From NCBI GenBank assembly GCA_024231955.1, contig JAAEPZ010000033.1:86240-150239 (forward strand): DNA of 64,000 nt, given 5' to 3'. Positions 35,393 to 53,436 of this stretch are shown one piece after another; position 1 is the first letter of the stretch, and each line of letters starts with the position of its first letter. The translations under genes were made by a program, and so were the position numbers. The notes beneath the pieces are model-generated. The model did not search any database. It saw only the letters and a list, made by a program, of their open reading frames with translations, and had not been told where the DNA came from. This stretch comes from a bacterium. GTDB lineage: Bacteria > Krumholzibacteriota > Krumholzibacteriia > JACNKJ01.

Positions 35393-35443
35393 GGACCTTG
35401 CTGGCAGAATACAATAAGTTCATCTAAACAGAAACGAGAGAGA

Positions 35444-36955: not shown

Positions 36956-37049
36956 GCTGTTGCATGTATAAATTTCTACCTCAAATACACAAGTCTCTGA
37001 GTAAGTATAGCATCACCAGCACTCTCAACTCAATTAAAATATATGCCAG

Positions 37050-37220
37050 TGACCTTCTCCCTTCAGCCGACCAAATCCTGAGTTAGTCTTTCAATCTTGT
37101 TTTGCTTCTCCGCAAACTCCTCAGTGGTCATCAGCCCCAGCGATCTATGCGGTCTGAACGTGTTGTACTTCTTCCGCCAATCCTCAATCTTCTGACGAGC
37201 GTCGGCCAGATTCGCAAAAA
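37050..37220 (-). mobile_element. IS3-family (IS407-like) 3'-end remnant with right inverted repeat
   Basis: FANLADARQKIEDWRKKYNTFRPHRSLGLMT transposase C-terminus, followed by ...GAAGGGAGAAGGTCA. Confidence 0.8.
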
Positions 37221-37370
37221 CCCCAAGAGCTCTCGCTCCCGGGGTTCGACGTTAACAGAAAGGCCGCCGGAATCCGGCGACCTTTATCAGGCTCCCCAAA
37301 CGTAACTCTCCTCGTAACCTTCACAGGGTTTGCACATTTTAGAACTGTCCAGCTATCAGGGAGGAGGTCA
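37218..37370 (-). repeat. att-like repeat copy 2 joined to an IS3-type terminus
   Basis: Same double hairpin and GGCTCC core as the tRNA-adjacent copy; same downstream arm as copy 1. Confidence 0.8.
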
Positions 37371-37508
37371 GTTGGTGCAAATGATCTGCCATGTGAGCAG
37401 ATTTGTCTGAACAGTATGTTTAGGCTTTGAGGGGGGAATAGGTCAGAAAGCGGTTCTTTCCAATGGAGGAGATGATATTCTGAATGCGGCCGAATATCGA
37501 CGACTGAG

Positions 37509-39956
37509 CTATCGAAGCAGTACAAGTTTACAAGTAGACTCAATACTGCCTATCGTCAGGCGAGCGAAGTAAACGCCTGATCCAACGGGTTCCTCTTTAT
37601 GATCATTCCCATCCCAATTCAGTTGGTATTTGCCTTTTGGATAATTCGCATTAGTCAGGGTTCTGATCTTTCTGCCCGAGACATCATAGACAGTGATATT
37701 GACACGATCCACCTCCGGAACATTGAAGCTGATCGTTGTAGTCGGATTGAATGGATTGGGGTAATTCCACAGCAAGCTGCCGGAGAGCAAAGTTGAAGGA
37801 TTATCAATCACACCTGTTACACCTTCAGTTCTGTTGATGAGAATCGATACACTACCGTAACCTTGGTTCGTCAAGGCCAGATCCATATGCCCATCATTAT
37901 CGAAATCACCTGTAGCAACAGATGTTGGGCGATTACCGGAGAAGTAGCATACGGTTGAGTCGAAAGTACCGTCTCCTAATCCCTTGAGAATAGCAACATC
38001 GTCAGTATATCTATTTGCTGCCGCGAGGTCCGTATGACCGTCACAATCGAAATCTTCAGCGACTACCGACTCGGGTTCATATCCAGCAAAGTAGTATTCG
38101 GCGGGACTGAATGAACCGTTCCCTGACCCAATGAGAATCGCGACACAGTAATCAATTACCAACGCTAGGTCCGTATGCCCGTCCCCATTGAAATCCCCTT
38201 TTGTGATCCAGACAGTATCTGAAACAGGGTAGCCGACCGCTGTGTCGAATGTGCCATCGCCAATTCCCAGGAGAATCGAGACACCGTACTCTTTCGCAAT
38301 AGCCAGATCCGTGTGCCCATCCTCGTTGAAATCTCCTGTTACAAGATTTGAAGGTGAGCCAGCGCCGATGCTATATGTCAGAGCCTCTCCGAACGTACCG
38401 TCCCCTGCGCCAGGTATGATCGATACTCCGTTTCTGTTCGTCACCGCCACATCGGTATGTCCATCCTCGTTGAAATCTCCAAGAGTCAGGGAATGGGATT
38501 CCTGCCCCAGCCAATAATCAACAGCGGTGTTGAATGAGCCGTCCCCAGCCCCAATGAGAATCGAGAAATCATGAGATAGACCATTTGCGGTAGCCAGATC
38601 ACAATGCCCGTCTTCATTGAAGTCTCCCGAGGAAACAATGAGGGGACGGGCTCCGACAGGGCAGGTTACTGTAGTATTGAATATGCCTTCCCCAGAACCC
38701 ATAATTATCGAGACATCATCGGAATTGTAATTGGCCACGGCAAGGTCTAGATTCCCGTCATTGTCAAAATCCTCCGTGATGACTGACCATGGATAACTGC
38801 CGGCGCTATAATAGGCAGGGCCGCAGATCGTACCCTCACTCACACCCGGGAAAATGAGGACACTTTCCTTGACCCAGTTTGCTACGGCTATTTCCTTATG
38901 CCCGTCACGGTCAAAATCCTCGGCGATGATCGAGGTAGGTGTAGACGAAACAGGATAACTCACATCAATACTGAATGTGCCATCCCCCGCTCCACAGTGA
39001 AGTGAGATGGAGGTGGAGGAGTAAATGGCTACAGCCAAATCATTGTGTCCGTCGTTATTCAAATCTTCCACTGTGATCGCGATGGGTTCGTTTCCTGTCA
39101 CGAGGGGCGAGGAGATACTGAAGCTGCCACTACCTGATCCCAATAGTATTGATATGTAGTCTGCATCTGAATTGGTGATCACCAAATCTATATGATCATC
39201 TTCATTGAAGTCCCCTGTGGCGAGTGAAGATGGTCCATCTTGCCCACCATAGCTCACCGATGCGTTAAATGAGCCATCTCCATTTCCCGAGTAAATCGAC
39301 ACACTACCGGATGCGTAGTTGGCAACCGCCAGATCAGTATTGCCATCCTCGTTAAAATCCATCCCAACAACTGAGCGGGGTTCATCACCTGTTGTGACAT
39401 TAGCAGCGACGATAAATGTGCCGTTCCCTGCACCCAACAGAATAGAGATATTATCTGATCCAGCATTCGCAACCGCCAGATCAGTATGTCCGTCATTGTT
39501 GACATCTCCAGCAGCAATTGAGTATGGGCTGTTACCTACAGGGATCGCTCGTGACCGGACAGTACTGGTAAATGTGCCATCACCAGCACCACATAGAATC
39601 GAAATATTGTTGGATGCCGAGTTGGCCACAGCCAGATCTATATGTCCGTCCTCATTGAAATCTCCTGTGAGAAGATATCGCGGTTCATTGCCGACAAAGA
39701 AGTAATTGGCAGTGCCAAAAGTACCGTCTCCTAGGTTTAGAAGAAGAGCAACATTGTTGGAGAGTACGTTTGCCGTCACCAGATCTAGATGACCGTCTTC
39801 ATTGAAGTCTTCCGATGCTATGGAATAGGGTGTGACAAGCTGCAAAGACCAATTATCAACACGGTAGGCTTGCGCCGTGTTGAAAAGCGGACCCGCAGCC
39901 TGCGAACTGGAAAAGGACGTAATAACGATAGCCAGACACCATAGTATTTTTTTCAC
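37509..39956 (-). CDS. secreted FG-GAP/VCBS repeat protein with FlgD-Ig/T9SS-like C-terminus
   Basis: GTG start (VKKILW) with AAGGAG RBS; about 14 'GDFNEDGHTDLAVAN...SIL.G.GDG.F' repeats; NYPNPFNP...KLVLLR; lower GC. Confidence 0.9.
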   Translation of the reverse strand: MKKILWCLAIVITSFSSSQAAGPLFNTAQAYRVDNWSLQLVTPYSIASEDFNEDGHLDLVTANVLSNNVALLLNLGDGTFGTANYFFVGNEPRYLLTGDFNEDGHIDLAVANSASNNISILCGAGDGTFTSTVRSRAIPVGNSPYSIAAGDVNNDGHTDLAVANAGSDNISILLGAGNGTFIVAANVTTGDEPRSVVGMDFNEDGNTDLAVANYASGSVSIYSGNGDGSFNASVSYGGQDGPSSLATGDFNEDDHIDLVITNSDADYISILLGSGSGSFSISSPLVTGNEPIAITVEDLNNDGHNDLAVAIYSSTSISLHCGAGDGTFSIDVSYPVSSTPTSIIAEDFDRDGHKEIAVANWVKESVLIFPGVSEGTICGPAYYSAGSYPWSVITEDFDNDGNLDLAVANYNSDDVSIIMGSGEGIFNTTVTCPVGARPLIVSSGDFNEDGHCDLATANGLSHDFSILIGAGDGSFNTAVDYWLGQESHSLTLGDFNEDGHTDVAVTNRNGVSIIPGAGDGTFGEALTYSIGAGSPSNLVTGDFNEDGHTDLAIAKEYGVSILLGIGDGTFDTAVGYPVSDTVWITKGDFNGDGHTDLALVIDYCVAILIGSGNGSFSPAEYYFAGYEPESVVAEDFDCDGHTDLAAANRYTDDVAILKGLGDGTFDSTVCYFSGNRPTSVATGDFDNDGHMDLALTNQGYGSVSILINRTEGVTGVIDNPSTLLSGSLLWNYPNPFNPTTTISFNVPEVDRVNITVYDVSGRKIRTLTNANYPKGKYQLNWDGNDHKEEPVGSGVYFARLTIGSIESTCKLVLLR

Positions 39957-39973
39957 GGCAGTCTCCTTGCTGG

Positions 39974-40176
39974 TGCATGTTGCCAGACCAAACCGGTTAT
40001 TCATACTCCAAAACTAATAGACACATTCCTCTCTGATTGCTAAAGGTCGGATCAACTTCTCACCCTTCAGCTCATATCCCTTATTATACTTCCTTCTTCG
40101 TCTCAGCGTCTATACTTTAAACAACTGTCTCGCCGGCTGGATCTCATGGTGGCGACCATGGTAGACATCCGCCAGC
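39974..40176 (-). mobile_element. IS 3'-end remnant, copy B
   Basis: Homologous to 35191-35392 and truncated at the same internal point. Confidence 0.65.
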
Positions 40177-40269
40177 CTGACTTTCTTCAGTGATTCATGA
40201 GAGGTGGTCCCCGGATTTCGGACAGTGTGTTAAGGTGGCTCCGCATCTCTGAACGGAGGAAAAGGAGCA

Positions 40270-40551
40270 ATGGCAAACCGACGTAAATTCTCAGCTGAGT
40301 TCAAGGCCAGGGTTGCCCTGGAGGCATTGGTGGGAGATAAAACGCTGGCCGAATTGGCCACCAAACACAATGTCCACCCGAACATGATCGCCCAGTGGAA
40401 ACGGCAGGCCAAGGAGAATATGCCAAGTCTGTTCTCCAGGAAAGCAGACCGCAGCCAGGTTGTCGGTGAGGCTGAGATCAAGGATCTGCACGCCAAGATC
40501 GGCCAGTTGACCGTGGAGCGTGATTTTTTAAAGAAAGCCTTCGGACGTTGA
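40270..40551 (+). CDS. IS3 transposase OrfA (HTH)
   Basis: RRKFSAEFKARVALEAL...LATKHNVHPN.I.QWK...KIGQLTVERDFL. Confidence 0.92.
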   Translation: MANRRKFSAEFKARVALEALVGDKTLAELATKHNVHPNMIAQWKRQAKENMPSLFSRKADRSQVVGEAEIKDLHAKIGQLTVERDFLKKAFGR

Positions 40552-41393
40552 GCCACGGACGGAGGGCAACGATGATCGAACCGCATCATCGGAGGCTCAG
40601 CATCGGCAGCCAATGCGAGTTGGTTAGCATCGCCCGCTCGTCGTACTACTACACGGGCAAAGGCGAGAGTCCGCTCAATCTAAAGCTGATGAGGCTTGTC
40701 GACGAGCAGTTCCTCCAGACACCCTTTTATGGATCACGCCAGATGAGAAAGTATCTTCGCAGGCAGGGCTATTTTGTCGGACGCCATCGTGTCCGGCGCC
40801 TGATGCGGAAGATGGGGTTGGAGGCGATCTTCCAGAGACCTAAGACCTCGGAGCCTCATCCAGAGCATCGCATCTACCCATACCTGTTGCGGAACATGGA
40901 GATCGACCAACCGAATCAGGTCTGGTGTGCCGACATCACGTACATCCCAATGCATAGGGGTTTTCTGTATCTGGTGGCGATCATGGACTGGGCGACACGG
41001 ACGGTCCTGGCCTGGCGGCTGTCCAACACGATGGACAGTTCTTTCTGTGTTGAAGCACTTGAAGAAGCATTGTTGAAGTATGGTACGCCGAAGATCTTCA
41101 ACACGGATCAGGGCAGCCAGTTTACGAGCCAGGAGTTTACGCAGGTGCTGAAGGACGCTGATGTACGGATCTCAATGGACGGTCGCGGCCGCTGGATGGA
41201 CAATGTCTTTATTGAGCGTCTGTGGCGGTCCCTCAAGTACGAATGCATTTACCTGCACGATTTCGAGGATGGCCTGCGAGCCAAGGCAGGTATCGATGTT
41301 TGGATGAAGTTCTACAACGAGGAGCGTCCTCACTCGCTGTTCGCTGATGACAGGACACCGATGGAGGAGTACAATCGATTGAAGGCGGCATGA
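40548..41393 (+). CDS. IS3 transposase OrfB (DDE/rve)
   Basis: [45 protein letters not shown]. Confidence 0.93.
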
Positions 41394-41397
41394 TAAA

Positions 41398-42255
41398 TCA
41401 TATGGAGTCCACCTTAACTAAGCCGCTGAGCTGTCCAAGAAAGTGGGACCACCTCTCTCCGACATGGATCTCATCCTTGTAGGTGATTTGACCTATGTAG
41501 AGGACATTGGTGAGTAGGCTATGCAGGCTGTGTTTGTTGAATGGGTTGCCACCCGCGATCTTGCCCTTCTTTGTCGTCCACCGCTTGTTGGTCCATCCTC
41601 GTTCATCTAGAACTTGGAGCGTTCGCATGAGCGATTCTTGATCGAAGTAGATTTCGTATATGGACCGAACTCGCGTGGCTTCGTCTTCGTTGACGATCAG
41701 GCGACCGCCCTTGGGATCTACATCGAATCCAAGGATCGGTCTGCCACCTGCCCATTTACCTTTACGTCGTGTAGCGGCGATCTTATCGCGCGTCCGTTCC
41801 GAGATGATCTCACGCTCGAACTGCGAGAAGGATAGAAGGATATTCAGTGTTAGACGACCCATGGAACTGGTCGTATTGAACTGCTGTGTGACCGAAACAA
41901 AAGAAGCCCCGTGTTTTTCCAAAATCTCCATGATCCTGGTGAAATCGAGAAGACTCCGCGACATGCGGTCGACCTTGTAGACCATTACGCAGTCAATCCG
42001 TCCAGCTTCTACATCTGCCATGAGTCGTTTGAACGCCGGGCGCTCCATGTTGCCACCGGTGTATCCACCATCATCGTACCGATCCGGAAGGCAAATCCAG
42101 CCCTCACTTTTCTGGCTGGCGATGAAAGCCTCCCCAGCTTCACGTTGGGCATCAAGGCTATTGAACTCCTGCTCAAGACCCTCCTCAGTGCTCTTGCGGG
42201 TGTAGATGGCACAGCGGATCTCCGGAACCTCAGCCCTCTTTCCTGCCATAGGCAT
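41398..42255 (-). pseudogene. large serine recombinase, C-terminally truncated by the IS3
   Basis: CAIYTRKST (catalytic Ser), YDDGG.TGG..ERPA, VYKVDRMSRS, FSQFEREIISER; recombinase domain cut at 41458, last residues read from IS sequence. Confidence 0.88.
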
Positions 42256-42739
42256 GTCCTTTCTTGCCAAGCTTGAAGAAGTGGTAACCGTTCCAGTGGG
42301 TGCCTGTGACCTTCTTGGCAACAGCACTCAACGTCCGGTATACTTCCCCCGCATACTCAAACCCTCTTGGCAGGACCCGCACCTCGATCATCTCACCTTT
42401 GTACTGCCGGGTGATGATTGCACCTGACATGGGAAGACGATTATCCTGGGAAAGCTGGATGGTCGAAACCGAGGTCAGGTCAGTTGGAGAAACTGCTATT
42501 TCCCTTGGCGCTGTGAGACGGATGTCGGAATCAACTGCGAGATCCTTCGCCCTCTGCCGCGCGCGATCGGACAAACCTCCTTCCCGGTTTGCCTGCAATC
42601 GCCAGATGATTCGGCGAATCAGGAACTGCTTGTGTCGGGACGTCGTGCTCTCACCAAACGCTTCAGTATACTTCTGTCGAAGATCCGGAATCGTCATCTT
42701 CTGAAGTGCTGTGATTTCCTTGCCGATGTTGAGCGTCAT
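42230..42739 (-). CDS. DUF2924-family protein
   Basis: L..M....LR..Y...FG...RI.WRLQ...GGLS, G..ITR.YKG....V.V...GF.Y.G..Y..LSAVA...TG..WNG..FF.L; overlaps the recombinase start. Confidence 0.85.
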   Translation of the reverse strand: MTLNIGKEITALQKMTIPDLRQKYTEAFGESTTSRHKQFLIRRIIWRLQANREGGLSDRARQRAKDLAVDSDIRLTAPREIAVSPTDLTSVSTIQLSQDNRLPMSGAIITRQYKGEMIEVRVLPRGFEYAGEVYRTLSAVAKKVTGTHWNGYHFFKLGKKGHAYGRKEG

Positions 42740-42774
42740 ACTTCACTCCTCTCGTGAACTTCGGTGCGTTAACC

Positions 42775-42984
42775 CTAAGTCACATGAGGGCAGGAAGTTG
42801 GGAGCACATCAAGGGCTTTCTGGAGCGGTTCAGACGTATGCCCATCGGGTTCTGAAACGGCCGATTCTGGCGACAAATGACGGGGCCAGTGAAGGCGGAG
42901 GATCCCTCTCGCGAGGATAGCCGCAATCTCGTCACTGCATTGGCTAGGGAGCAGGTTGGGGGTGTTTTCTGACGAATGCCGCAT
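42775..42984 (-). CDS. small hypothetical protein upstream of DUF2924
   Basis: 'EIAAILARGILRL' helix resembling small ORFs that precede DUF2924/recombinase pairs. Confidence 0.55.
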   Translation of the reverse strand: MRHSSENTPNLLPSQCSDEIAAILARGILRLHWPRHLSPESAVSEPDGHTSEPLQKALDVLPTSCPHVT

Positions 42985-43170
42985 CGTGAACCTCCCGCTG
43001 GGTGTACCCACAACGGCCTCCGCCCAACAGTCGGCTCATTGTCTGGCTAGACTAGAATCTATGTTTATGTTTATCTACTCGGTATGGTTACGATACGTCG
43101 ATAATAGGGAGATGACCTAGCTATCTAGCCCTGATAGATGGAGAGGAATCCCACAAAGATTAGGAGGTGG

Positions 43171-45474
43171 ATGGTGAAAGCGTTTTATGCCTACCCATCG
43201 TCTGTAGCAGATGTCACACAGGTGATAAACGCTACCAAACGGATTCTCTCTGACACTCACCGCGACTTGGATCTTCACCTGTGGGAAGAAAACGATATAT
43301 CAGGCAGGCCGTTGACAGATCCAATCTTTAAAGGCATTGAAAGCGCTGACATCCTCATCGCGGATGTTACGGCTATTAATTTCAATGTGACATTTGAAAT
43401 CGGTTACGCCATCGGTCTCGGGAAAAGGGTCTACCTCACTTGTGACAGCAATATATCCCGAGATTCTACACTGGCGAACAAGATCGGCATCTTCGATACG
43501 CTTGGGTACGAAACATATACCGATGAGATAACTCTATCGGAGTTGATTAGGGCATACCGATCAGATGGGGGCATCCCCATTCGCTCAATCGTCAGTCCCA
43601 GTTCCCCTGTATACGTTCTGCAAACACCTCAATCAAACTCCGCGATGATCGCGATTACCGCACGTATCAAGAAAGCTCGGCTGGGGTACAAGGGCTATAT
43701 ACCAACAGATGACGCCCGACTTTCAGCAGTAAAGGCAATCGATGATGTTTCCTCCTGCCACGGTGCTGTCATTCCTCTACTTTCAACGGAGTTCCGCGAT
43801 GCAGCGGTTCATAACATCCGAGCAGCTTTTATCGCAGGACTAGCGATTGCGATGGGAAAAGTTACTCTAGTCCTTCAGCCCAAAGATGGTCCCGCGCCAC
43901 TCGACGTACGCGACCTAGTTAGGACATTTAGCAGTCCAGACGACATAGCTGGTTTCATCGCTACGCTTGCTCTGGACATCACGGAGCGCTTTCAAACAGA
44001 CAATCCCCTGCCCACCACACAGGGCAATTTTCTGGCAGAGTTAGCAATAGGGGACTCGGTGGCCGAGAATGAGTTCCAGACTCTTGGTGGGTACTATCTA
44101 CGGACAGATCAGTATAAGCGGGCATCCCGTGGGGAAGTGAACATAGTAGTAGGTCGCAAGGGTACCGGGAAGACTGCACTCTTCTCACAGCTTCGTAACG
44201 AGAAAAGATCGAGAGTGCATAACATCGTCGTCGACTTGAAGCCTGAGGGATATCAGCTGATTCGATTGAAGGAGGACGTTCTCGATTACCTAGCTGATGG
44301 AGCCAAGACCCACCTCATCACAGCGCTTTTCGAGTACCTATTTTACTTGGAGATTTGCTACAAGGTGCTCGAGAAAGATCGTGAGAGGCACATGCGTGAC
44401 GAGCACCTCTACGAACCTTACCGCCGCTTACGGGAAGTCTACGATTCGGGTTCAGCCGCTGAAGGCGACTTCTCTGAGCGGCTGCTCGGCTTGTCCCAAC
44501 AGCTGATTGCTGCTTTTAAAACTCGCTTCGGCACTACTATGGATCAAAGGCTGACGGCTTCAGAAGTCACGGAGCTGATCCACAAACGCAATATCCGAGA
44601 CATCCGCGATAGCTTATCGGCTTACTTAGAGTTCAAGGACAGCATTTGGGTGCTGTTCGACAATCTCGACAAGGGCTGGTCTACGCATGGTCTGACCGAT
44701 GGTGACATACTGATTCTTCGATGTCTTATAGATGCTGCACGCAAGATCCAACGGGAACTGCAGCGAGACGGACACGACTTCCATAGCGTTGTATTTGTGC
44801 GAAATGACGTGTATCAACTTCTGGTGGAGGCATCAGCTGACTACGGCAAGGAAAGTCGAGCCGTACTAGATTGGACTGACGCTGATCTGCTGCGAGAGTT
44901 GCTTCGGCGTCGCCTCATTAGCAACCAACCGATCGACGACACTCCGTTTGATCGTATTTGGTCTCAGATCTGCGTTAGCCACTATCATGGTGAAGAAACA
45001 TCCCAGTATCTGATCGATCGGTCGCTAATGCGTCCTCGCAATCTAATAAAGCTCCTTGCCCATTGCCGCGGATTCGCAGTTGGTCTAGAGCGCACGCGAA
45101 TTGAGAAAATAGATCTAGAGAAAGGCCTACGAGCGTACTCAATCGATCTGATCACAGAAGCAGATCAAGAACTGACGGACATCCTCGGTACTGAAACAGA
45201 TCTCATTTACTACTTCATAGGAGAGGGGCAGGAGTTTGAAAGAGAAAGGTTAGAGAGCATCCTCATCGGTGCGGAAGTTCCCGCTGAGAAGATCGACGAC
45301 GTCATTTTCTTCATGCTCTACTATGGATTCCTTGGCGTAAAGGCTGACGATAGGGATCCAAAGTATATTTATGAGCTTGAGTACGATATGAAACTCCTGA
45401 GTACCATCGCTGCGAAGGCAGATAGATTGACATACATCCTCAATCCAGCCTTCCATCCGGGTCTCAACCTGTAG
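43171..45474 (+). CDS. tandem NDT/TIR-like Rossmann domains fused to a P-loop ATPase (Sll1717/FunZ-like); candidate defence protein
   Basis: AGGAGG RBS; ADILIADVT..NFNVTFEIGYAIGLGK; second unit HNIRAAFIAGLAIAMGK; GDSVAENE, Walker A GRKGTGKT, Walker B WVLFDNLD, RPRNLI; lower GC. Confidence 0.85.
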   Translation: MVKAFYAYPSSVADVTQVINATKRILSDTHRDLDLHLWEENDISGRPLTDPIFKGIESADILIADVTAINFNVTFEIGYAIGLGKRVYLTCDSNISRDSTLANKIGIFDTLGYETYTDEITLSELIRAYRSDGGIPIRSIVSPSSPVYVLQTPQSNSAMIAITARIKKARLGYKGYIPTDDARLSAVKAIDDVSSCHGAVIPLLSTEFRDAAVHNIRAAFIAGLAIAMGKVTLVLQPKDGPAPLDVRDLVRTFSSPDDIAGFIATLALDITERFQTDNPLPTTQGNFLAELAIGDSVAENEFQTLGGYYLRTDQYKRASRGEVNIVVGRKGTGKTALFSQLRNEKRSRVHNIVVDLKPEGYQLIRLKEDVLDYLADGAKTHLITALFEYLFYLEICYKVLEKDRERHMRDEHLYEPYRRLREVYDSGSAAEGDFSERLLGLSQQLIAAFKTRFGTTMDQRLTASEVTELIHKRNIRDIRDSLSAYLEFKDSIWVLFDNLDKGWSTHGLTDGDILILRCLIDAARKIQRELQRDGHDFHSVVFVRNDVYQLLVEASADYGKESRAVLDWTDADLLRELLRRRLISNQPIDDTPFDRIWSQICVSHYHGEETSQYLIDRSLMRPRNLIKLLAHCRGFAVGLERTRIEKIDLEKGLRAYSIDLITEADQELTDILGTETDLIYYFIGEGQEFERERLESILIGAEVPAEKIDDVIFFMLYYGFLGVKADDRDPKYIYELEYDMKLLSTIAAKADRLTYILNPAFHPGLNL

Positions 45475-45795
45475 TTTAAATGGGGGTTAAATCCAAGGAG
45501 TGGTAAATCTCTCTGTCTACTGACAAATGTACGCCCCCCACACCCCAATGTCCCACTGCTCGAGGTAGCCATGGGGTCATAGGGTTAACGCCCTAGCTTG
45601 ATATGCGACCGGGTCAAGGTTGTTAACCCAGAGAGCTCCGTTGACCAGAGACTTGGAGAGTTTCTACTAGGTTCTCTGTACCGCGATCGTGACCATCACA
45701 ATCCCGATCGATCCCCAACCACTCTCCGTCGGATCAGAGACCTCCGATCCTCGGGTCTGACCCGCTCAAGGGTCTTGGCTGGTGGCGGAATACTA

Positions 45796-45876
45796 AGAAA
45801 CCCCGAGGGCTCTCGCTCTCGGGGTTCTCCGTTAACGGAAAGGCCGCCGGAATCCGGCGACCTCTGATAGGCTCCT
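45796..45876 (-). repeat. att-like repeat copy 3 (tRNA 3' end + two terminator-like hairpins)
   Basis: Directly abuts the tRNA-Asn 3' end; hairpins GGTCGCCGGATTCCGGCGGCC and CCCCGAGAGCGAGAGCCCTCGGGG. Confidence 0.85.
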
Positions 45877-45944
45877 CAGGTAGGACTTGAACCTACAACC
45901 CTGCGGTTAACAGCCGCATGCTCTGCCAATTGAGCTACTGAGGA
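45872..45944 (-). tRNA. tRNA-Asn (GTT)
   Basis: TCCTCAGTAGCTCAATTGGCAGAGCATGCGGCT-GTT-AACCGCAGGGTTGTAGGTTCAAGTCCTACCTGAGGAG; cloverleaf with T-loop GTTCAA; followed by CCT, not CCA. Confidence 0.97.
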
Positions 45945-45959
45945 ACGTTGCGCCGGGAC

Positions 45960-45988
45960 AGAATAATTACATCACCGCCCATTGTCAA
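45960..45988 (-). promoter_or_regulatory. sigma70-type promoter of tRNA-Asn
   Basis: TTGACA-17 bp-TATTCT on the minus strand just upstream of the tRNA. Confidence 0.7.
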
Positions 45989-46248
45989 GATCCTCACACC
46001 GCTTTACCACCATCCGTCAACCTCTTCAACAGCAACCACTTGCAGCCGCCATGCGTCGGTCAAACACAGGTTGTGCCGATTCCGCCTCCTCCGCAGCTCG
46101 CTGCTCAGCGTCAGAACCAGTGACGCCTTATCCGGATTCGACAAGGGGGAGCTCCGGCGCGGTTGCGAACGCTCTCCCGCTAACCTCTGCACGACGCCAT
46201 CCCGGTTGGCCTGCGGACGGATCCGGATATCCCCCAACATGACGTTCG

Positions 46249-46277
46249 TTGACTTGCCGCGGACCTCTCGCTACAGT
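46249..46277 (+). promoter_or_regulatory. candidate sigma70 promoter for cysteine desulfurase
   Basis: TTGACT-17 bp-TACAGT. Confidence 0.5.
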
Positions 46278-46309
46278 CTCCGCAATTCACACCGACCCGG
46301 GAGAGAGTC

Positions 46310-47440
46310 ATGCAGCCCGTCTATCTCGACTACAACGCCTCCACACCCGCCGATCCCCGTGTCGTCGACGCCATGCTCCCCTATCTGGCCGAACACTTCG
46401 GCAACCCCTCCAGCAGTCATCCCTTCGGCAAGATCACACGCGACGCCGTGGAGCTGGCTCGCACCCAGGTGGCGACCATGCTCGGCTGTACTGCCGACGA
46501 GATCGTGTTCACCAGCGGTGGTACGGAGTCCAACAACCACGCCATCCGCGGGGTGGCGCATGAACGTCGCGGGCGGGGGCGTCACATCATCAGCTCCTCG
46601 GTCGAGCATCCCGCTGTCACGCAGGTGTGCGAATATCTCGCCGGGCAGGGGTGGGAGATCGATTACCTGCCCGTGGACGAGACCTGCCTCATTAATCCGA
46701 GTGATCTCAAGGCGCGCATCCGCTCCGACACGGTGCTGGTGACGATCATGCACGCCAACAACGAGGTCGGCACGATCCAGCCGATCGCCGAACTGGCGCG
46801 CATCGCCCACGAGCATGGCGCGCTGTTCCACACCGATTGCGCGCAGTCTGTCGGCAAGATCCCCGTCCGGGTGGAGGACCTCGGGGTCGATCTGCTCAGT
46901 CTGGCCGGACACAAGATCTACGCGCACAAGGGTGTCGGCGCGCTCTACGTGCGCCGGGGAACACCCGTCGCGAAACTGCTGCACGGTGCGGGCCACGAGG
47001 ACAATCGCCGTGCGGGCACGGAGAATGTGCTGGAGATCGTCGGGTTGGGCAAAGCCTGCGAACTCATAGGCGATGAGATCGACGTCGAGATCAACCGCCT
47101 GCGTCAGCTGCGCGATCTTCTCGAAAAGACTTTGCGCAAGAGCTATCCCGAACTCGCCCTCAACGGACATCGCGAACTGCGATTGCCCAATACGTTGAGC
47201 GCAAGTTTTCCGGGCGTCAATTCGAGCGCGCTGCTGGCCCGACTCGACAGTGTCGCGCTCTCCGCGGGCGCAGCCTGTCATGAGGCCGGCGTCGACGTGT
47301 CGGCGGTGTTGCAGGCGATGCACACTCCGCTCGATGTCGCGATGGGAACGTTGCGCATGTCGGTCGGTCGTTTCAGCACCCGCGATGAAGTGCTTTTCGC
47401 GGCGCAGGAGATTCTGGCGAGCGTAAAAACATTGCCATAA
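46310..47440 (+). CDS. cysteine desulfurase (NifS/IscS group I)
   Basis: YLDYNASTP, FGNPSS, FTSGGTESNN, HANNEVG, AGHKIY (PLP Lys), SAGAACH. Confidence 0.93.
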   Translation: MQPVYLDYNASTPADPRVVDAMLPYLAEHFGNPSSSHPFGKITRDAVELARTQVATMLGCTADEIVFTSGGTESNNHAIRGVAHERRGRGRHIISSSVEHPAVTQVCEYLAGQGWEIDYLPVDETCLINPSDLKARIRSDTVLVTIMHANNEVGTIQPIAELARIAHEHGALFHTDCAQSVGKIPVRVEDLGVDLLSLAGHKIYAHKGVGALYVRRGTPVAKLLHGAGHEDNRRAGTENVLEIVGLGKACELIGDEIDVEINRLRQLRDLLEKTLRKSYPELALNGHRELRLPNTLSASFPGVNSSALLARLDSVALSAGAACHEAGVDVSAVLQAMHTPLDVAMGTLRMSVGRFSTRDEVLFAAQEILASVKTLP

Positions 47441-47550
47441 CGGATCGTTTTCGCAGAGGCCACTTGCATGGATCGACAAAGTCAGTAAAATGCAGACACC
47501 CCGTCACGAATAACCCCCGAAACTACGCCAAGCTCCGAAAGGATGGACCC

Positions 47551-49356
47551 ATGCCCAAGAGCGCCGGCAAGGCAAAAATCAACGTCAATAAAGTCTACTG
47601 GAATCTGTCCGAACTCTACACAGGTCAGGACGATCCCAAGCTGGAGAAGGATTTCAAATCGATGGAGCGCGCGTGCAAGACGTTCGCCAAGAACTATCGC
47701 GGTCGTGTAGGCAAGCTCGACGCCAAGGAGATGCGCAAGGCGCTTAAGGCGATGGAGAAGATCGACACGATCTCCTACTCGGTCGTCATCTACGCCATGC
47801 TGGAGTTCGCGACCAAGAGCACCGATCCCAACTGGGGCGCGTTCCGCCAGAAGGTGATGGAGCGCAACTCGCGCGCCTTCGAGAACCTGAGTTTCTTCCA
47901 GGTCGAGTGGGCCAAGCTGTCCGCAGCCAAGGCCAAGGCGCTGACCACGGACAAGACTCTGATCCGCTTCAAGCATTTCCTGGAGCACAGCCGCCTCTAC
48001 AAGAAGCACACGCTCAGCGAAAAAGAGGAGATCCTCGCCACCAAGCTGGGGCAGATCGGCGGCGGCGCCTGGTCGCGTTACTACACGACCGTGCTCTCCG
48101 ATGTCGAATACGTGTTCCGGGGCAAGAAGATCACCGCCTCCGAACTCGTGGCCAAACTGCAGCACGCCGATCGGGATGTGCGGCGCGACGCCAGCGAGAC
48201 CCGCACCGCCGGTCTCTCGGCCCAGGCCAAACCGTTGACCTTCGCGTTCAACATGATCCTGGCCGGCTGCAAGACCGAGGATGAGATCCGCTCCTACGAC
48301 ACCTGGGTGCAGTCGCGCAATCTCTCCAACGAGATTCCCGACAAGGTCGTCGATTCGCTCGTCAAGGCCTGCCTGGAGCGGGGCGATATTCTCCGTCGCT
48401 ACATGAAGCTCAAGAAGAAGCTCATGGGTGTGAAGCAGATGATGTCCTACGACGTCTCCGCGCCTCTGCCCGGTGCGCGCGAGAAGAAGTCGGACTACGC
48501 CACGGCGCGCAAGGATGTCGTCGAGTTGTTCGAGGAGACCACCCCCGCGTTCGGCAAGATCGCCCGCGACATGTTCGAGCAGGATCACATCGACGCGCCG
48601 CCCTACAAGGGCAAACGCTCGGGCGCATTCTGCATGTCCAACATGTCGGGTCTCCCCTATGTCATGCTCAACTGGACCGGCAAGACCCGCGACGTCGCCA
48701 CCATGGCCCACGAACTGGGGCACGCCGTTCACGCCGAGCTCAGTCGCGACAAGGGTCCCCTGGGCCAGACCGACAGCCTGGTCATGGCCGAGGTCGCCTC
48801 GGTGTTCATGGAGACGCTGCTCTACAACAAGCTGCTCAAGCAGACCAAGAGCCCGCGCGCTCGTCTCGACATGCTCAAGAACATCATCGAGGACGGCTTC
48901 TCCACCACGCTGCGTCAGATGCAGTTCAACCGCTTCGAGAACTCGGTGCACAATCACCGTCGCGAAAAGGGCGAGCTGACCAGAGAGCAGTTCTGCGAAT
49001 ACTTCCAGGAGGCGGAGAAGGCCTACTTCGGCAACACCGTGAAGCCGCACAAGGGCACCGACGTGTTCTGGATGTATGTGCAGCACTTCATGGCGGTGCC
49101 GGGTTACGTCTACGCCTACTGCGCGAGCTATCTCGTCGTGCTGTCGCTGTACAAGCGCTACCTCGATGAGGGCGAGAGCTTCCTGGTCGGCTATGAGGCG
49201 ATGCTGGCGGCAGGCGGCAACAAGACGCCGGAGGAGCTGCTCTCCGCGCTGGGTGTCGACTGGAGTCAGGAGAGTTTCTGGCACAGCGGTCTCGATGTCC
49301 TCGACGGTTTCGTCGAGCAGTTCAAAACCGCCGCGAAAGAGCTGAAGCTGCTCTAG
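47551..49356 (+). CDS. pepF: oligoendopeptidase F (M3B)
   Basis: WNLSELY, GKRSGAFC, HELGHAVH zinc motif, AEVASVF.E, YVYAY. Confidence 0.9.
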   Translation: MPKSAGKAKINVNKVYWNLSELYTGQDDPKLEKDFKSMERACKTFAKNYRGRVGKLDAKEMRKALKAMEKIDTISYSVVIYAMLEFATKSTDPNWGAFRQKVMERNSRAFENLSFFQVEWAKLSAAKAKALTTDKTLIRFKHFLEHSRLYKKHTLSEKEEILATKLGQIGGGAWSRYYTTVLSDVEYVFRGKKITASELVAKLQHADRDVRRDASETRTAGLSAQAKPLTFAFNMILAGCKTEDEIRSYDTWVQSRNLSNEIPDKVVDSLVKACLERGDILRRYMKLKKKLMGVKQMMSYDVSAPLPGAREKKSDYATARKDVVELFEETTPAFGKIARDMFEQDHIDAPPYKGKRSGAFCMSNMSGLPYVMLNWTGKTRDVATMAHELGHAVHAELSRDKGPLGQTDSLVMAEVASVFMETLLYNKLLKQTKSPRARLDMLKNIIEDGFSTTLRQMQFNRFENSVHNHRREKGELTREQFCEYFQEAEKAYFGNTVKPHKGTDVFWMYVQHFMAVPGYVYAYCASYLVVLSLYKRYLDEGESFLVGYEAMLAAGGNKTPEELLSALGVDWSQESFWHSGLDVLDGFVEQFKTAAKELKLL

Positions 49357-49377
49357 GTCTTATGTATCGAAAACAGA

Positions 49378-49410
49378 GCCCGGATCCGCGCAGGCGGGTC
49401 CGGGTTTTTT
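49378..49410 (+). terminator. terminator after pepF
   Basis: GCCCGGATCCGC-GCAG-GCGGGTCCGGGT followed by a T run. Confidence 0.8.
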
Positions 49411-49802
49411 CTTTGGATCCGATCGGGGGCGGGCAGGCGAACAGAAGGATCAAGACTGTGAAGATGAACGCATGACATCCTCCCAGGTTGAGTGAGGGGA
49501 TCTCCATATCCGATTATTGATCTAAGATGAAAGTTACGAGTGGTCCCGATCCCCATCCGCTCCAGGTTTTGACTTGATCGCAGCTGAGCAATTCGTCCCC
49601 GCGGAAAATGAACGTTTCGAGACGGCGGCGACACACTCCGAACTCTCCCCACCGCACCAACCGATTTCGGAAAGGTTCGGTTGGCTTGGCCTCCGCCTCG
49701 TAATCTGCTATCCTCATTCGGACAGCAAACCCCATTCGATGTCGGCGACCGCCGATCGACTGCCCCGGCAAGGCCCGGGAAGAGTTTCTAGGATACAGGA
49801 GC

Positions 49803-50858
49803 ATGAAGATGAGTGGAGCCGGAGCCTGGGAGAAATTTCCGAAAGTCGACCTCCACCGCCACCTGGAGGGATCGATTCGCCTTGAAACGCTCAGGGAGAT
49901 CGCCAGAAGCTACGATCTGGACTACCCTATCGACGATCTGCCCCGTTTCCGCACTATGGTCCAGATGACTCCCGACCAGCGCAGTGCCGAGGCCTTACTG
50001 GCCAAGTTCGCCGTCCTCCGTCACTTCTTCCGCTCGGAAGAGATCATCACCAGGATAACCCGCGAAGCGGTTCTGGACGCGGCCGCGGATGAGGTTCGCT
50101 ATCTTGAACTGCGCTTCAACCCGGTGGCCCTGTCCGCGCATAACGAGTTCACCCCGGCTCAGGCTTGTCGCTGCGTCCAAAACGCAAGCGCCCTGGCCGC
50201 CGTTGACTGCGGAATCGATGTGCGCCTCATCATTTCCATCAACCGCTCCGAGCCGGAGCGTGCGCATGAGCTCCTGGATATCGCCTGCGATGGCGTAAAG
50301 GAGGGCATCACCGGTCTTGATCTTTCCGGAGATGAGGTCAACGCTGCCGCCGAACCCTTTATAGATCTCTTCGATCGGGCCCGATCGGCCGGTCTCGACA
50401 TCTCCGTCCACGCCGGCGAATGGACGGGGCCGGAGAATATCCGTTTCGCCATAGAGGAGCTGAACGCCACACGCATCGGCCACGGCATCGGCATCCTCGA
50501 CGATCCGGATTTGATCTCATTGGCCAGAGAGAGGGGAACGCTCTTCGAATTCTGCATCACCAGCAATTACCTCACGGCGGCGATCGCGGTCAAAAAGGAG
50601 CACCCGGTCCTTGAATTGACTCGCAAGCATGGACTCAGCACCACTCTCAACACCGACGACCCCTCCATCTTCGACGTCACCCTCAGCGATGAATTCGAGT
50701 TCGCGCATGATCACCTGGGACTGACCATCGAGGAGCTGCGGGCCATGAACCTCCGGGCCGCGCGACACGCCTTCCTCGACGACGGGACCCGAAACAAACT
50801 CATCACGCATCTTCAGCAGAAGTATGCGGAAAATGACAATCTACCTGCCAAAATGTGA
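49803..50858 (+). CDS. add: adenosine deaminase
   Basis: PKVDLHRHLEGS, YLELRF, GLDLSGDE, HAGE, RIGHG, NTDDP. Confidence 0.93.
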   Translation: MKMSGAGAWEKFPKVDLHRHLEGSIRLETLREIARSYDLDYPIDDLPRFRTMVQMTPDQRSAEALLAKFAVLRHFFRSEEIITRITREAVLDAAADEVRYLELRFNPVALSAHNEFTPAQACRCVQNASALAAVDCGIDVRLIISINRSEPERAHELLDIACDGVKEGITGLDLSGDEVNAAAEPFIDLFDRARSAGLDISVHAGEWTGPENIRFAIEELNATRIGHGIGILDDPDLISLARERGTLFEFCITSNYLTAAIAVKKEHPVLELTRKHGLSTTLNTDDPSIFDVTLSDEFEFAHDHLGLTIEELRAMNLRAARHAFLDDGTRNKLITHLQQKYAENDNLPAKM

Positions 50859-50993
50859 TTTAGGCTGCGATTTTTTACAATTTCATGACCGAATGTTATA
50901 GAATCGCACTAAGCACGGATGGGCTTGAGCCTGATCCGAAAAGAACACACCATCCGACGGTTTCCCGATAACCGTCATGAGGCAGAGTGGTTC

Positions 50994-52292
50994 ATGTCCG
51001 TCAGGCCCGAGCAAGCTCATGATCACAGTTCCACTGCGATGTGGATTCTGAAGATCGCTCAAGATCTGGCCCGCCCGTTCCCACTCAACAGAATGCTCGA
51101 AGAGGTAGTGAGAGTCGCCTGCGCCGCGCTTCGGGCCGACCGCACCACCATCTGGCTCCACGATGACGAAACCTCGGAGTTCTACACGGAGGTAGCGATC
51201 GGGATCGATCCGATCAGAATCCCCTCGGATCGGGGTTTGGTCGGCGCTTGCGGCAGCTCGAGAGAGGTGATCAACGTACCCGACTGCCAATCCGACCCAC
51301 GCTTCAACCCGACCGTGGATCGGGAAACCGGCTACCGCTCCCGCTGCCTGCTTTCCGTGCCCCTCATCGGCTACGACGACTCATTGATCGGCGTTATGCA
51401 AGTACTGAATCGCCACGAGGGTCATTTCGACGACGCCGACATCGAAACCGCCACGGCGCTTTCCGCTCACTGCGCAGTCGCTCTGCAGCGTGCGCAGATG
51501 CTCGAAGAGCTGCTGGTCAAGAGACGGCTCGAACACGAGTTGGCGGCCGCTCGTCAGATTCAACGCGGAACACTGCCCCAGGAGATGCCCAAAATCGAGG
51601 GCTACGAGATCTTCGGTTGGAACAAACCCGCGGAAGAGACCGGCGGCGACACCTACGACATCCATCAAAAGGACGAACACCTGTTCTCCCTGCTGCTCGC
51701 CGACGCCACCGGGCACGGCATCGGACCGGCCATCAGCGTAACTCAGGTACGCTCCATGCTGCGAATGTGCGACCTGATGGGTTGCCCGCTCGAGGAGGCT
51801 TTCGAGGGGGTCAACCGGCAACTCGTGGCCGACCTGCCCTCCGATCGCTTCGTTACGGTTTTTCTGGGTCAACTGGATACGCACCTGCACAGAGTCCGCT
51901 ACCTGTCGGGCGGTCAGGGCCCAGTGCTGCATTATCGAGCCGATACGGACAAGGTGGAGTTCCTCGATTCCACAACAATGCCGCTTGGGATCCTCAAGGA
52001 CCTTCCGGGTTCGGGACCTCGCAACATCGACCTGCAGCCCGGTGACATCGTCGCCCTGATCACGGACGGTCTCGTCGAAGCGGCGCGGGAAGACGGAGAG
52101 CAGTTCGGCGACGAGCGTACGGCGGCATGCCTGCGGGAGTATGGACATCACCCGATGTCCGAGCTCGCCCGAATTCTTCACGAACAGGTTCTGGAGTTCA
52201 ATCATCACGCCCGGCAGGACGACGACATCACGGTCCTGCTCGTCAAGCGGCAGCCGGGTTATGCGACCAAGGCTGACGGCATCGGCACTTGA
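50994..52292 (+). CDS. GAF + PP2C/SpoIIE (RsbU-like) phosphatase
   Basis: GAF 'PD..SDPRFN..VD..TGY....L..P...GVMQVLNR...F'; GGDTYD, DATGHG, TDGLVEA, DDIT. Confidence 0.92.
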   Translation: MSVRPEQAHDHSSTAMWILKIAQDLARPFPLNRMLEEVVRVACAALRADRTTIWLHDDETSEFYTEVAIGIDPIRIPSDRGLVGACGSSREVINVPDCQSDPRFNPTVDRETGYRSRCLLSVPLIGYDDSLIGVMQVLNRHEGHFDDADIETATALSAHCAVALQRAQMLEELLVKRRLEHELAAARQIQRGTLPQEMPKIEGYEIFGWNKPAEETGGDTYDIHQKDEHLFSLLLADATGHGIGPAISVTQVRSMLRMCDLMGCPLEEAFEGVNRQLVADLPSDRFVTVFLGQLDTHLHRVRYLSGGQGPVLHYRADTDKVEFLDSTTMPLGILKDLPGSGPRNIDLQPGDIVALITDGLVEAAREDGEQFGDERTAACLREYGHHPMSELARILHEQVLEFNHHARQDDDITVLLVKRQPGYATKADGIGT

Positions 52293-52311
52293 GGACAAGA
52301 AGGAGATTGAT

Positions 52312-53436
52312 ATGGACGGCAAACGACGACACAGGTTCCTGTTCGGACTCGGCGCGCTTATTCCGCTGCTGATGATCGCACTGCTTCCGCAGACCGACGC
52401 ATCGGCTGATTCCTGCAGCGACGGAGACCCTTATATCAAATTGACTCTGTCCGATCTGGGGCTCAGCACCCTCGATATATTCTACCTGTCCGACTTCCGG
52501 GCCGATACGGGCAGTCCGTCCCGGCCGCTCTTCCAATTCTCCGTGTCGAACGACGGCGCGAGCGACCGGAGTCTGGTCCTGACTCTGCAGCTGGATGCCG
52601 AGACCGGCCCCCTCTTCTCCGCCAGCACATACCCATTCGACGTTGGTGCGGGGCAGACGATCTCCGGCACCAATCAGGACCTCAGCACCGTCGGCTCGAT
52701 GTTCGAACTGGGGGTCATGGATCTGACCGACGGGAGACAGGAATCCCTCATTCTCCGTCTGGGCTACCTCCCCGAGGGCGAATACCATCTGCGGCTCTCC
52801 CTGGACGATGCGACCACCGCAACGGAGATCAGCGAGTGTTTTCTCCAATTTACCGTGATCAACCCGCGAACGGTCGAACTCATTCTCCCTGGAGCCGAAT
52901 TTGAAGACATGCTGCCCGTCGAGAATTCCCCCTTCCCGCTGTTCCAGTGGCAAAGCGACGCGGGTCTATTCGATATCCGCCTCTGCCCCGTCATGCCCGG
53001 CGACGGCAGCGGTGAGGAGGTCATGGGCAACGAACCCGTTCACGAAAATCTCGGTTTTTACACGGAGTTCACGGGTACTCACACCTGGTTGTATCCCCCT
53101 GGCGCCGAGTCCCTGGCAGAGGGCCAAAGCTATTGCTGGCAGGTGGAGGCGATCGTCCCCAGTTCCAGCGGAGATACGCGCTTCATCAGCGAGATCTTCT
53201 GTTTCGAGATGTCGAGCACGACGGGCGCACCCGACTACGATGCGATTCTGGATCTCCTGATGGAATTGCTCCCGCCGGGAGCTCTGGCCGAGGTATTGCC
53301 GCAACTCGCGGGACTCAACTCCACCGGAACGATCACCTTGAATCACGAGACCATCAGCTCCGCGGAAATGGCGACTCTATTGAGATCGCTCCTGTCCGCG
53401 GGCTGGGAGGTCGGCAGCCTGGAGGTCACGGAATAA
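52312..53436 (+). CDS. secreted hypothetical protein with Ig/FN3-like domains
   Basis: AAGGAG RBS, signal peptide; 'LPEGEY', 'PLFQWQS', 'YP..A.SL.EG.SY.WQVEA'. Confidence 0.78.
   Translation: MDGKRRHRFLFGLGALIPLLMIALLPQTDASADSCSDGDPYIKLTLSDLGLSTLDIFYLSDFRADTGSPSRPLFQFSVSNDGASDRSLVLTLQLDAETGPLFSASTYPFDVGAGQTISGTNQDLSTVGSMFELGVMDLTDGRQESLILRLGYLPEGEYHLRLSLDDATTATEISECFLQFTVINPRTVELILPGAEFEDMLPVENSPFPLFQWQSDAGLFDIRLCPVMPGDGSGEEVMGNEPVHENLGFYTEFTGTHTWLYPPGAESLAEGQSYCWQVEAIVPSSSGDTRFISEIFCFEMSSTTGAPDYDAILDLLMELLPPGALAEVLPQLAGLNSTGTITLNHETISSAEMATLLRSLLSAGWEVGSLEVTE

Follow-up and report, generated by a model that had tools for sequence, protein, structure and literature searches.

Does the solitary gene of low GC content beside a tRNA gene in a genome of the Krumholzibacteriota encode a one-gene anti-phage system, and how would such a protein work? 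The gene lies at positions 43171-45474 of a stretch of 64,000 nucleotides (assembly GCA_024231955.1, contig JAAEPZ010000033.1, positions 86,240 to 150,239 of the forward strand). This whole stretch is called the window here. A preliminary description of the window had proposed an undescribed anti-phage system, in which two units like nucleoside 2-deoxyribosyltransferase (NDT) precede a P-loop ATPase. The analysis indicated that the protein begins with two flavodoxin-like domains from the NDT/DNPH1/TIR group in tandem, packed as one unit. The candidate catalytic glutamate is kept in domain 1 and appears to be absent from domain 2. The C-terminal half, an AAA+ ATPase resembling ORC/Cdc6, belongs to the Sll1717 family. 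Its Walker A and Walker B motifs are intact, and it has an RPRN motif and ends in a winged-helix tail. With a probability of roughly 0.6, the protein is a self-contained, horizontally mobile conflict protein, most likely an anti-phage protein of the abortive-infection type that carries effector and switch in one chain. Of interest are the NDT-type effector, the live/dead tandem and the wide spread of the family, whose ATPase already has a name. The design, an effector fused to an NTPase switch, is a known one, and the system is not categorically new.

Domain architecture and conserved residues

The reading-frame call gave an open reading frame (ORF) of 778 aa at 43138-45474 on the plus strand. 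The ATG at 43171 is preceded by an AGGAGG hexamer (Table 1) and yields 767 aa, in agreement with the 766-770 aa typical among the homologs listed. The GTG at 43174 is an equally possible alternative start. Residue numbers count from the ATG at 43171, and Glu76 is Glu87 in ORF numbering. All of the motifs cited in the preliminary description, namely ADILIADVT..NFNVTFEIGYAIGLGK, NIRAAFIAGLAIAMGK, GDSVAENE, GRKGTGKT, LFDNLD and RPRN, were found in the translation.

Domain 1 was assigned from sequence profiles and from structure. A profile was built from 48 N-terminal halves of diverse origin (alignment A3), and among the sequences of the Protein Data Bank (PDB) it matched only Rcl/DNPH1, with a best E of 1.2e-3. 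In the profile alignment, Glu76 stands opposite the Glu of GVGYELG in Rcl/DNPH1, which we take to be the nucleophile of DNPH1. Human D80A, known from the mutant names in PDB titles, falls at alignment index 63, and the DNPH1 glutamate is thereby E104. The precomputed family table assigns PF05014 (Nuc_deoxyrib_tr) to the window's own protein (P0002), and the threshold of this family was reached by three of the 50 representatives scanned (P0188 with 29.6, P0215 with 28.8 and P0218 with 28.8 bits). A model of residues 1-290 was obtained with a predicted local distance difference test score (pLDDT) of 86.6 and a predicted template modelling score of 0.86. Fold searches were carried out with VIA-align, a tool for which Z 7-8 is common background. 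Residues 1-131 superpose on DNPH1 (9s0o_B) at Z 10.0 with a root-mean-square deviation (rmsd) of 2.1 over 115 residues, and more than 20 DNPH1 entries do so at Z 8.5-9.4 (whole chain). The 2'-deoxyribosyltransferase 7o62 (Z 8.8) and MilB are also superposed on this domain. The fold match to DNPH1 and the position of Glu76 bear out the earlier view of the first unit as NDT-like with its Glu intact.

Domain 2 (residues 143-279) superposes on the TIR-STING structure 9lmq at Z 10.5-10.8 over 134 residues. Its scores are 10.4 against the RPS4 TIR, 9.8 against TIR-1 and 9.5 against the RPP1 TIR, and those against MilB (10.2) and DNPH1 (10.1) are equally high. As modelled, domain 2 is thus indistinguishable between TIR and NDT. 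The Pfam scan of the protein gave no TIR family model at E ≤ 0.01, and the PADLOC model named 'TIR effector' reached 13.6 bits, on domain 1. Clusters of the ESM Atlas named as NDT and TIR scored 0.81-0.88, under the 0.9 level, and serve as leads only. When the two domains were compared by hhalign, a weak alignment (E 0.004, probability 8%) placed their G-x-G-K helices together and Ile221 opposite Glu76. The position that appears to match Glu76 is Ile or Val in domain 2. The weak alignment agrees with the earlier view of a second unit of the same fold group that lacks the Glu. An internal duplication is not claimed from it, as E 0.004 and a probability of 8% are too weak. Both domains, then, match the NDT/TIR group that had been named as the fold to look for. 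The earlier term of an active/inactive NDT pair is a fair description, with the correction that domain 2 is equally near TIR and NDT.

The C-terminal half belongs to a curated ATPase family. NF047389 (P-loop ATPase, Sll1717 family) matches at 301.9 bits, against a cut-off of 75, over its full model length (1-454 of 454; residues 304-776 in ORF numbering). Besides, phrog_13260, a family of unknown function, matches at E 1.3e-34. No NACHT or NB-ARC match was found in Pfam at E ≤ 0.01; AAA_16 and AAA_22 appear below threshold. The whole protein was modelled by AlphaFold2 from 51 sequences with a mean pLDDT of 79; the value falls below 50 at residues 279-321, between tandem and ATPase. Among the Foldseek neighbours are archaeal Cdc6/Orc1 (1fnn, 2qby), ORC subunits, the archaeal ATPase paby2304, the plant NLR RPP1 and BrxC. 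VIA-align with residues 292-767 gave TnsC at Z 9.8, RdrA at Z 9.5 and Cdc6/Orc1 at Z 9.1 and 8.9. The Cdc6/Orc1 alignments extend to residues 766-767 and thus span the winged-helix tail, so the ATPase with a probable winged-helix tail of the preliminary description holds. In 51 homologs, the Walker A residues G328, R329, K330, G331, G333, K334 and T335, the Walker B residues D497, N498 and D500 and the stretch R621-P622-R623 are invariant. The same is true of G294, D295, A298, E299, N300 and E301 in the GDxVAENE motif of the linker. A role of the tail as a DNA sensor is not claimed, given its acidic charge (net -6; median -2 over the 51 homologs).

Conserved residues are found in both domains of the tandem. 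W38, G45, D65, N70, N72, E76, D109, R183, R217, G223 and R247 are invariant in 48 sequences, down to 28% identity. Domain 2 has conserved residues of its own, R183, H214-N215-x-R217 and D245-x-R247-D248. A wider tandem set was composed of the query, 80 cluster representatives and 47 loci (n = 128), and Glu76 is present in 124 of its sequences. Three of the four Glu-less forms carry an added N-terminal domain: a caspase (P0168), a PNP (P0153) or a SIR2 domain (P0140). The fourth, P0139, carries none of these. W38, H214 and D245-x-R247-D248 are also missing in all four, and the Glu and the D-x-R-D motif co-occur with a Fisher p of 0.0016. This pattern suggests that Glu76 marks the working enzyme and that residues of both domains form one functional unit. 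It also suggests that the tandem has a structural role, which would outlast the takeover by another effector. The addition of effectors ahead of the tandem was found in relatives with SIR2, PNP, caspase, CHAT and metallophosphatase domains. The Glu is kept despite the added domain in P0146 (CHAT) and P0152 (metallophosphatase).

Distribution and neighbourhood of the family

Of 8,000 candidates scored in a word-indexed search, 1,635 proteins reached E ≤ 1e-3. Most of the 120 matches listed are 766-770 aa long with 54-85% identity, and they come from unrelated phyla. Their sources include Syntrophales, Sinorhizobium, Brucella, Labrenzia, Rhizobium, Mesorhizobium, Caulobacter, Kiloniella and many metagenomes, which name them just 'hypothetical' or 'Sll1717 family'. 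Relatives are encoded in at least 330 of 599 pattern-matching stretches from species-representative genomes. The best 80 loci come from Alpha-, Beta-, Gamma- and Deltaproteobacteria, and from Gemmatimonadota, Acidobacteriota, Chloroflexi, Cyanobacteria, Planctomycetota, Myxococcota and Binatia. Alignments cover the entire architecture at identities from 85% to as low as 33%, and the ATPase module alone forms 1,963 clusters at 50% identity. The gene was found in none of 11 genomes of the same family, and in genomes of the same class, six of 29 gave weak matches only (22-56 bits), five of them partial to the ATPase half and one short to residues 61-124 of domain 1.

The gene is solitary and horizontally mobile. 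The preliminary description of a solitary gene of lower GC content was accurate. Its GC content is 0.497, against 0.584 for the window, 0.598 at positions 46000-64000 and 0.602 at 1-34000. The GC content of its third codon positions (GC3) is 0.54, whereas the four genes beyond the tRNA, on its right, have values of 0.73-0.86. One copy is present in the genome. The nearest loci, L011 and L002, resemble the window at about 75% on the DNA level, and this similarity is limited to 43175-45474, ending at the borders of the ORF. Full-length copies were found on 14 plasmid records from Rhizobium, Mesorhizobium, Paraburkholderia, Ochrobactrum, Ensifer, Bacillus mycoides, Rhodococcus and Leptolyngbya. 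Also, about 100 enterobacterial plasmids, mostly conjugative, carry a stand-alone relative of the ATPase that is 22% identical to residues 294-767 and is annotated as 'ATP-binding protein' or hypothetical (records H17-H25). Three copies need two to three reading frames, in a Gemmatimonadales locus (L011, 10001-12191), in Moraxellaceae (L049) and in a metagenome-assembled genome of Acidobacteriota (L081); these are probably pseudogenes or assembly errors.

For the neighbourhood analysis, ORFs in the 80 loci were called crudely by length and GC3 and then clustered. No partner gene is conserved across the 80 loci. The largest non-focal cluster, a short-chain dehydrogenase, occurs in eight of them at scattered positions. 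The recurrent clusters are generic: short-chain dehydrogenase, LysR, acyl-CoA dehydrogenase, tyrosine integrases (in seven and four loci), resolvases (in four loci and in the window) and RadC. The defence scan was performed on a random sample of 25 of the 49 loci whose flanks were complete. Three genes per side were compared with genes 7-9 positions away, an imperfect control as islands can extend that far. PADLOC matches at E ≤ 1e-10 were obtained for 21 of 150 near proteins and for six of 125 proteins at the control distance (Fisher p 0.014). Counted by locus, the figures are 14 of 25 and five of 25 (Fisher p 0.019). The enrichment of defence genes near homologs, for which a check had been proposed, is real and moderate. 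Clear defence neighbours are QatBCD (L006), a Type I methylase (L022), PDC-S15 (L024), DrmB/DrmC with DUF4238 (L031), Type IIG enzymes (L033, L043), AbiLi (L054) and pVip with PDC-M21A (L063). Some of the near matches are not true defence genes and were discounted, namely UvrA, UvrB, a relaxase and FtsJ.

Two further arrangements were seen among these loci. DUF4238 genes, which match 'DUF4238-Pers' in PADLOC, stand by a homolog in two cases in all, adjacent in L031 (8554-9555) and at 3.4 kb in L085 (Ochrobactrum plasmid pLM19O1, 12728-13681). In L063, a radical-SAM gene matching pVip adjoins a deoxynucleoside-kinase-like gene downstream of the homolog (13199-14691).

Proposed mechanism, related systems and rival explanations

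The favoured reading builds on the domain identities, the conserved residues, the solitary mobility, the moderate association with defence genes and the added effectors, all obtained by computation. Activation by assembly, the substrate, the trigger and the protection itself are parts that we infer. In the resting state, the ATPase would keep the N-terminal enzyme silent. A signal of infection, perceived by the ATPase or by its C-terminal part, would lead to ATP-dependent assembly, and assembly would set the N-terminal modules into an active arrangement. Glu76 would then cleave the N-glycosidic bond of an abundant nucleotide. The substrate might be NAD(P)+, which the N-glycosidase of retron-Eco1 attacks, or a (deoxy)nucleotide like the substrates of DNPH1 and MilB. 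Depletion of nucleotide or NAD+ would halt phage replication at the expense of the cell. Domain 2 may be an inactive paralogue by which the site is completed or regulated, and the tandem an intramolecular stand-in for the NDT/DNPH1 homodimer. In a more specific version, which we consider decidedly unlikely, W38, E76, H214 and D245-x-R247-D248 form a composite pocket across both domains of the homodimer-like tandem, which has one live and one dead site. Once the ATPase assembles, this pocket would hydrolyse deoxynucleotides, possibly modified ones specific to phages such as hydroxymethyl-pyrimidine nucleotides, on which DNPH1 and MilB act, and not NAD+. That version, if true, would bring to phage defence an effector chemistry that has yet to be described there.

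The closest known relative is DS-41 (DefensePredictor, Science 2026). DS-41 ('AAA2') is a single E. coli protein of 502 aa, an AAA+ ATPase counted among the validated systems, for which the authors give Cdc6 (2QBY_A) as best match (PMC13092281). Like the window protein, it is a single-gene unit with the same ATPase type, and both have Cdc6 as nearest structure. Compared by eye, its sequence (supplement of PMC13092281) has AENE before the P-loop, G-x-x-G-x-GK[ST], h-h-D-x-L-D and PR-x-LIKL, as here. However, DS-41 is without N-terminal enzyme domains, and the window protein is by its model score a distant homolog of it and not an orthologue. A second resemblance is with effector-NTPase defences such as TIR-NLR, Avs, bNACHT and DS-8, which share the order of N-terminal effector, central P-loop switch and C-terminal part, and which have exchangeable or added effectors, as do relatives of the window protein. 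RPP1 (TIR-NB-ARC) is co-linear with domain 2 and the ATPase (Z 9.1, rmsd 19.5). In DS-8 (metallophosphatase-NACHT), both effector and NACHT residues are required (PMC13092281). In contrast, the switch of the window protein is an ORC/Cdc6-like AAA+ ATPase, where Avs, bNACHT and TIR-NLR have a NACHT/NB-ARC STAND module. The window protein is without a repeat-type sensor (TPR, LRR, WD40), and its putative effector is an NDT/DNPH1-like domain joined to a presumably dead TIR-like domain.

With respect to the enzyme, the effector of retron-Eco1 (Ec86) is an N-glycosidase that hydrolyses NAD(P)+ in filaments (PMC12673091). It is likened here by description only, as an NDT-group anti-phage N-glycosidase in a higher-order assembly, and it is not among the 50 structure matches listed for the tandem domains. 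Its control is exerted by a reverse transcriptase-msDNA complex with a phage methylase as trigger, whereas a fused ATPase is found here. Swarozyc is a single-gene system with a DUF4062 TIR-like NADase that has a catalytic Glu and depletes NAD+ in a supramolecular assembly (bioRxiv 10.64898/2026.05.01.722283). It shares with the window protein the single gene and a TIR/NDT-superfamily domain with a catalytic Glu; it belongs to a different family, has an auxiliary domain other than an ATPase and responds to the phage portal as trigger. The Pfam scan of the window protein gave no DUF4062 match at E ≤ 0.01. Fusions of DRHyd or TIR domains to other NTPases were mentioned by Kaur et al. in 2020 (PMC7159879). 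DNPH1/Rcl, the NDTs and MilB/BcmB share the fold of domain 1 (Z 9-10, rmsd 2.1-2.9, 110-122 residues). They also have in common with domain 1 the motif h-h-h-A-[DE]-h-T ... G-h-x-[YF]-E-h-G, in which the Glu residues align. However, DNPH1, the NDTs and MilB are homodimeric metabolic enzymes of about 150 aa, and here a putatively live and a presumably dead copy are fused before an ATPase. RdrA of RADAR is a ring-forming defence AAA+ protein and a structural neighbour of residues 292-767, with 302 residues aligned. It works with a separate deaminase, RdrB, and an rmsd of 7.5 with 12% identity denotes a shared fold class only. Descriptions of this fusion were not found in the literature searched, in which subscription journals lay outside coverage, and the term 'Sll1717' returned no papers.

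A number of observations weigh against the favoured reading. Its basis is, for this architecture, computational throughout. Domain 1 of the window protein reaches 27.2 bits against PF05014, under the gathering score of 28.8. The fold scores (Z 8-10.8) only modestly exceed the common level of the tool. Because they are not far above background, the domain claim rests on sequence and fold jointly. Foldseek with the 290-residue tandem returned generic two-Rossmann-domain proteins only (EngA, PleD and GT-B glycosyltransferases, TM about 0.25), and these were rejected. The general-acid Asp of DNPH1 (D80) has no conserved counterpart in this protein family; therefore, the substrate is not readable from the sequence. 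The acidic tail gives no clue to the trigger. In a FastTree analysis based on the ATPase module, a single clade unites P0139, P0153 and P0168, with P0140 close by but without resolution. The loss of Glu with gain of an effector therefore represents one or two events and not four. No full-length model of PADLOC-DB v2.0.0 (2023) fits; the best match is PDC-M28C with 24.1 bits at residues 503-635. Against NF053860, the NCBIfam equivalog model of DS-41, residues 308-672 score 32.8 bits (E 3.7e-8), where the cut-off is 370. No named system is therefore matched, as far as PADLOC and the DS-41 model go. The word 'undescribed' in the preliminary description stands for the fusion only, as the ATPase family is already curated (NF047389) and the distant, stand-alone DS-41 has been validated. 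Finally, clear-cut defence neighbours were found in just eight of the 25 sampled loci. As to a conserved housekeeping context, the alternative named beforehand, no neighbour is conserved across the 80 loci; many of the sampled loci have housekeeping genes on their flanks, such as those for the glycine cleavage system, EF-Tu, LepA, UvrA and UvrB.

Folds related to those of the tandem, such as SLOG, are ligand sensors in known systems, which supports a reading of the tandem as sensor and not as effector. It would bind a nucleotide-type signal, e.g. a phage-modified nucleotide or an NAD-derived product, while the AAA+/winged-helix module blocks the phage. The protein would still serve defence, and this reading seems rather unlikely. 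The stand-alone ATPase homologs on the enterobacterial plasmids point in its direction, as do the representatives listed with domain 2 only or without an N-terminal domain and the listing of DS-41 as protective without any N-terminal enzyme (PMC13092281). However, a mere sensor accords poorly with a Glu that is retained in 124 of the 128 sequences and lost mainly where a caspase, PNP or SIR2 domain was added. The short forms are scattered on the tree as close sisters of full-length proteins, and many may be truncated gene calls. It is highly improbable that domain 1 makes a nucleotide-derived second messenger, as a Thoeris-type TIR does, for an effector elsewhere in the genome. TIR and DRHyd domains have been discussed as generators of second messengers (PMC7159879), but a partner is not conserved in the 80 loci, and the gene moves alone, with DNA similarity that stops at the ORF borders and solitary copies on plasmids.

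A function outside immunity also has to be considered, either as an accessory, regulated enzyme of nucleotide salvage or stress, or as a selfish or addiction function of mobile elements. No homolog was found among 50,697 phage records, which both speaks for such a function and counts against the favoured reading. Eleven of the 25 sampled loci have no PADLOC match within three genes, housekeeping neighbours are many, and the DNPH1 and NDT enzymes are metabolic by their PDB entry names. This explanation is nevertheless unlikely in view of the patchy distribution (0 of 11 genomes of the same family), the gene composition foreign to the host and the relationship of the ATPase with DS-41. The domains that relatives append (SIR2, PNP, caspase) are of a kind typical for conflict systems, and defence genes are enriched beside homologs relative to 7-9 genes away.

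If the reading as an effector under an ATPase switch is true, the protein would be a second NDT-group N-glycosidase immune effector besides that of retron-Eco1, here under an ORC/Cdc6-like AAA+ switch. If protective, it would represent a widespread one-gene defence family with at least 330 relatives. It could also clarify the working of Sll1717-family ATPases such as DS-41, as the fused enzyme would be a measurable output of ATPase activation. The live/dead tandem could be a compact model for the silencing and switching of dimer-dependent NDT/TIR enzymes.

Position of the gene in the window

Table 1. Coordinates in the window of the gene, its parts and its context
Feature	Position	Strand	Basis
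Whole gene, 767 codons and stop	43171..45474	+	ORF and homolog lengths
AGGAGG hexamer like a ribosome-binding site, before the start	43162..43167	+	read from sequence
Domain 1, residues 1-135, NDT/DNPH1-like flavodoxin fold, probable N-glycosidase effector	43171..43575	+	Pfam, profile, structure
Codon of Glu76, candidate catalytic nucleophile in NFNVTFEIG	43396..43398	+	alignment to Rcl/DNPH1
Domain 2, residues 140-280, TIR/NDT-like fold apparently without Glu	43588..44010	+	structure, hhalign
Low-confidence linker, residues 281-321, with invariant GDxVAENE (44050-44073)	44011..44133	+	pLDDT <50 at residues 279-321
AAA+ ATPase, Sll1717 family, residues 293-685	44047..45225	+	NF047389, Foldseek, VIA-align
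Walker A, GRKGTGKT	44152-44175	+	motif in translation
Walker B, LFDNLD	44653-44670	+	motif in translation
RPRN motif	45031-45042	+	motif in translation
Winged-helix-like tail, residues 686-767	45226..45471	+	Cdc6/Orc1 alignments, secondary structure, charge
tRNA-Asn (GTT), context	45870..45944	-	tRNA and Rfam scans
DUF2924 gene, context, left of the gene	42230..42739	-	Pfam
Serine recombinase gene, 309 aa, Resolvase and part of Recombinase domain, 3' part absent	41398..42327	-	Pfam
IS3-family insertion sequence, 27-nt inverted ends, adjoins the truncated recombinase gene	40199..41457	+	repeats and Pfam
IS3 orfA (HTH_Tnp_1)	40270-40548	+	Pfam
IS3 orfB (rve)	40548-41393	+	Pfam

The gene lies, as described beforehand, between a tRNA and a serine-recombinase module (Table 1). 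The tRNA-Asn gene begins 396 nt downstream on the opposite strand, and the DUF2924 and serine recombinase genes are to the left. The element that delivered the gene is now only a remnant. The 'att-like' character of the tRNA site was not confirmed, as the last 22 nt of the tRNA (its 3' end) recur nowhere else in the window, even with three mismatches allowed. The only repeat touching the tRNA-Asn gene is 45772-45880 (family D6). It was rejected as an att duplicate because it is a double GC hairpin terminator module, which is also present at 34166 and 37192. This intergenic hairpin pair of about 75 nt is a shared terminator module that lies 3' of the RRM-protein gene (34166-34353), of the gene for an FG-GAP protein with a type IX secretion signature (37192-37370) and, on the minus strand, of tRNA-Asn (45772-45880). 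At the first two sites, it is preceded by a stretch of 83 nt that is 89% alike. The Rfam scan of 33500-46300 gave the tRNA only, and the repeated hairpin module matches no family. The promoter scan of 42700-46000 returned two sites in total, with 3.2 expected, and no sigma-70-like site upstream of the gene on the plus strand, where the promoter type of the organism may not be covered by the scan.

The block of lower GC content (0.508) extends over 34200-45870. Its left part, with type IX secretion cargo genes and duplicated regulatory regions, is left outside the finding. The window belongs to an assembly of 7.1 Mb in 1,117 contigs, with a completeness of 97% and a contamination of 4%, and the 11 genomes of the same family have 2.2-3.7 Mb; the bin may hold more than one genome. 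In the left part, the upstream regions 35186-35392 and 39969-40176 are 83-91% alike. These duplicated 5' regions precede an RRM_1 gene (34545-34862, minus strand) and an FG-GAP gene (37509-40004, minus strand). The segment 35444-40004 contains two low-GC genes (GC3 0.42-0.47) in a genome of 60% GC. Their products, which are beta-propeller/FG-GAP proteins, carry FlgD_ig and, for type IX secretion, Por_Secre_tail at the C-termini.

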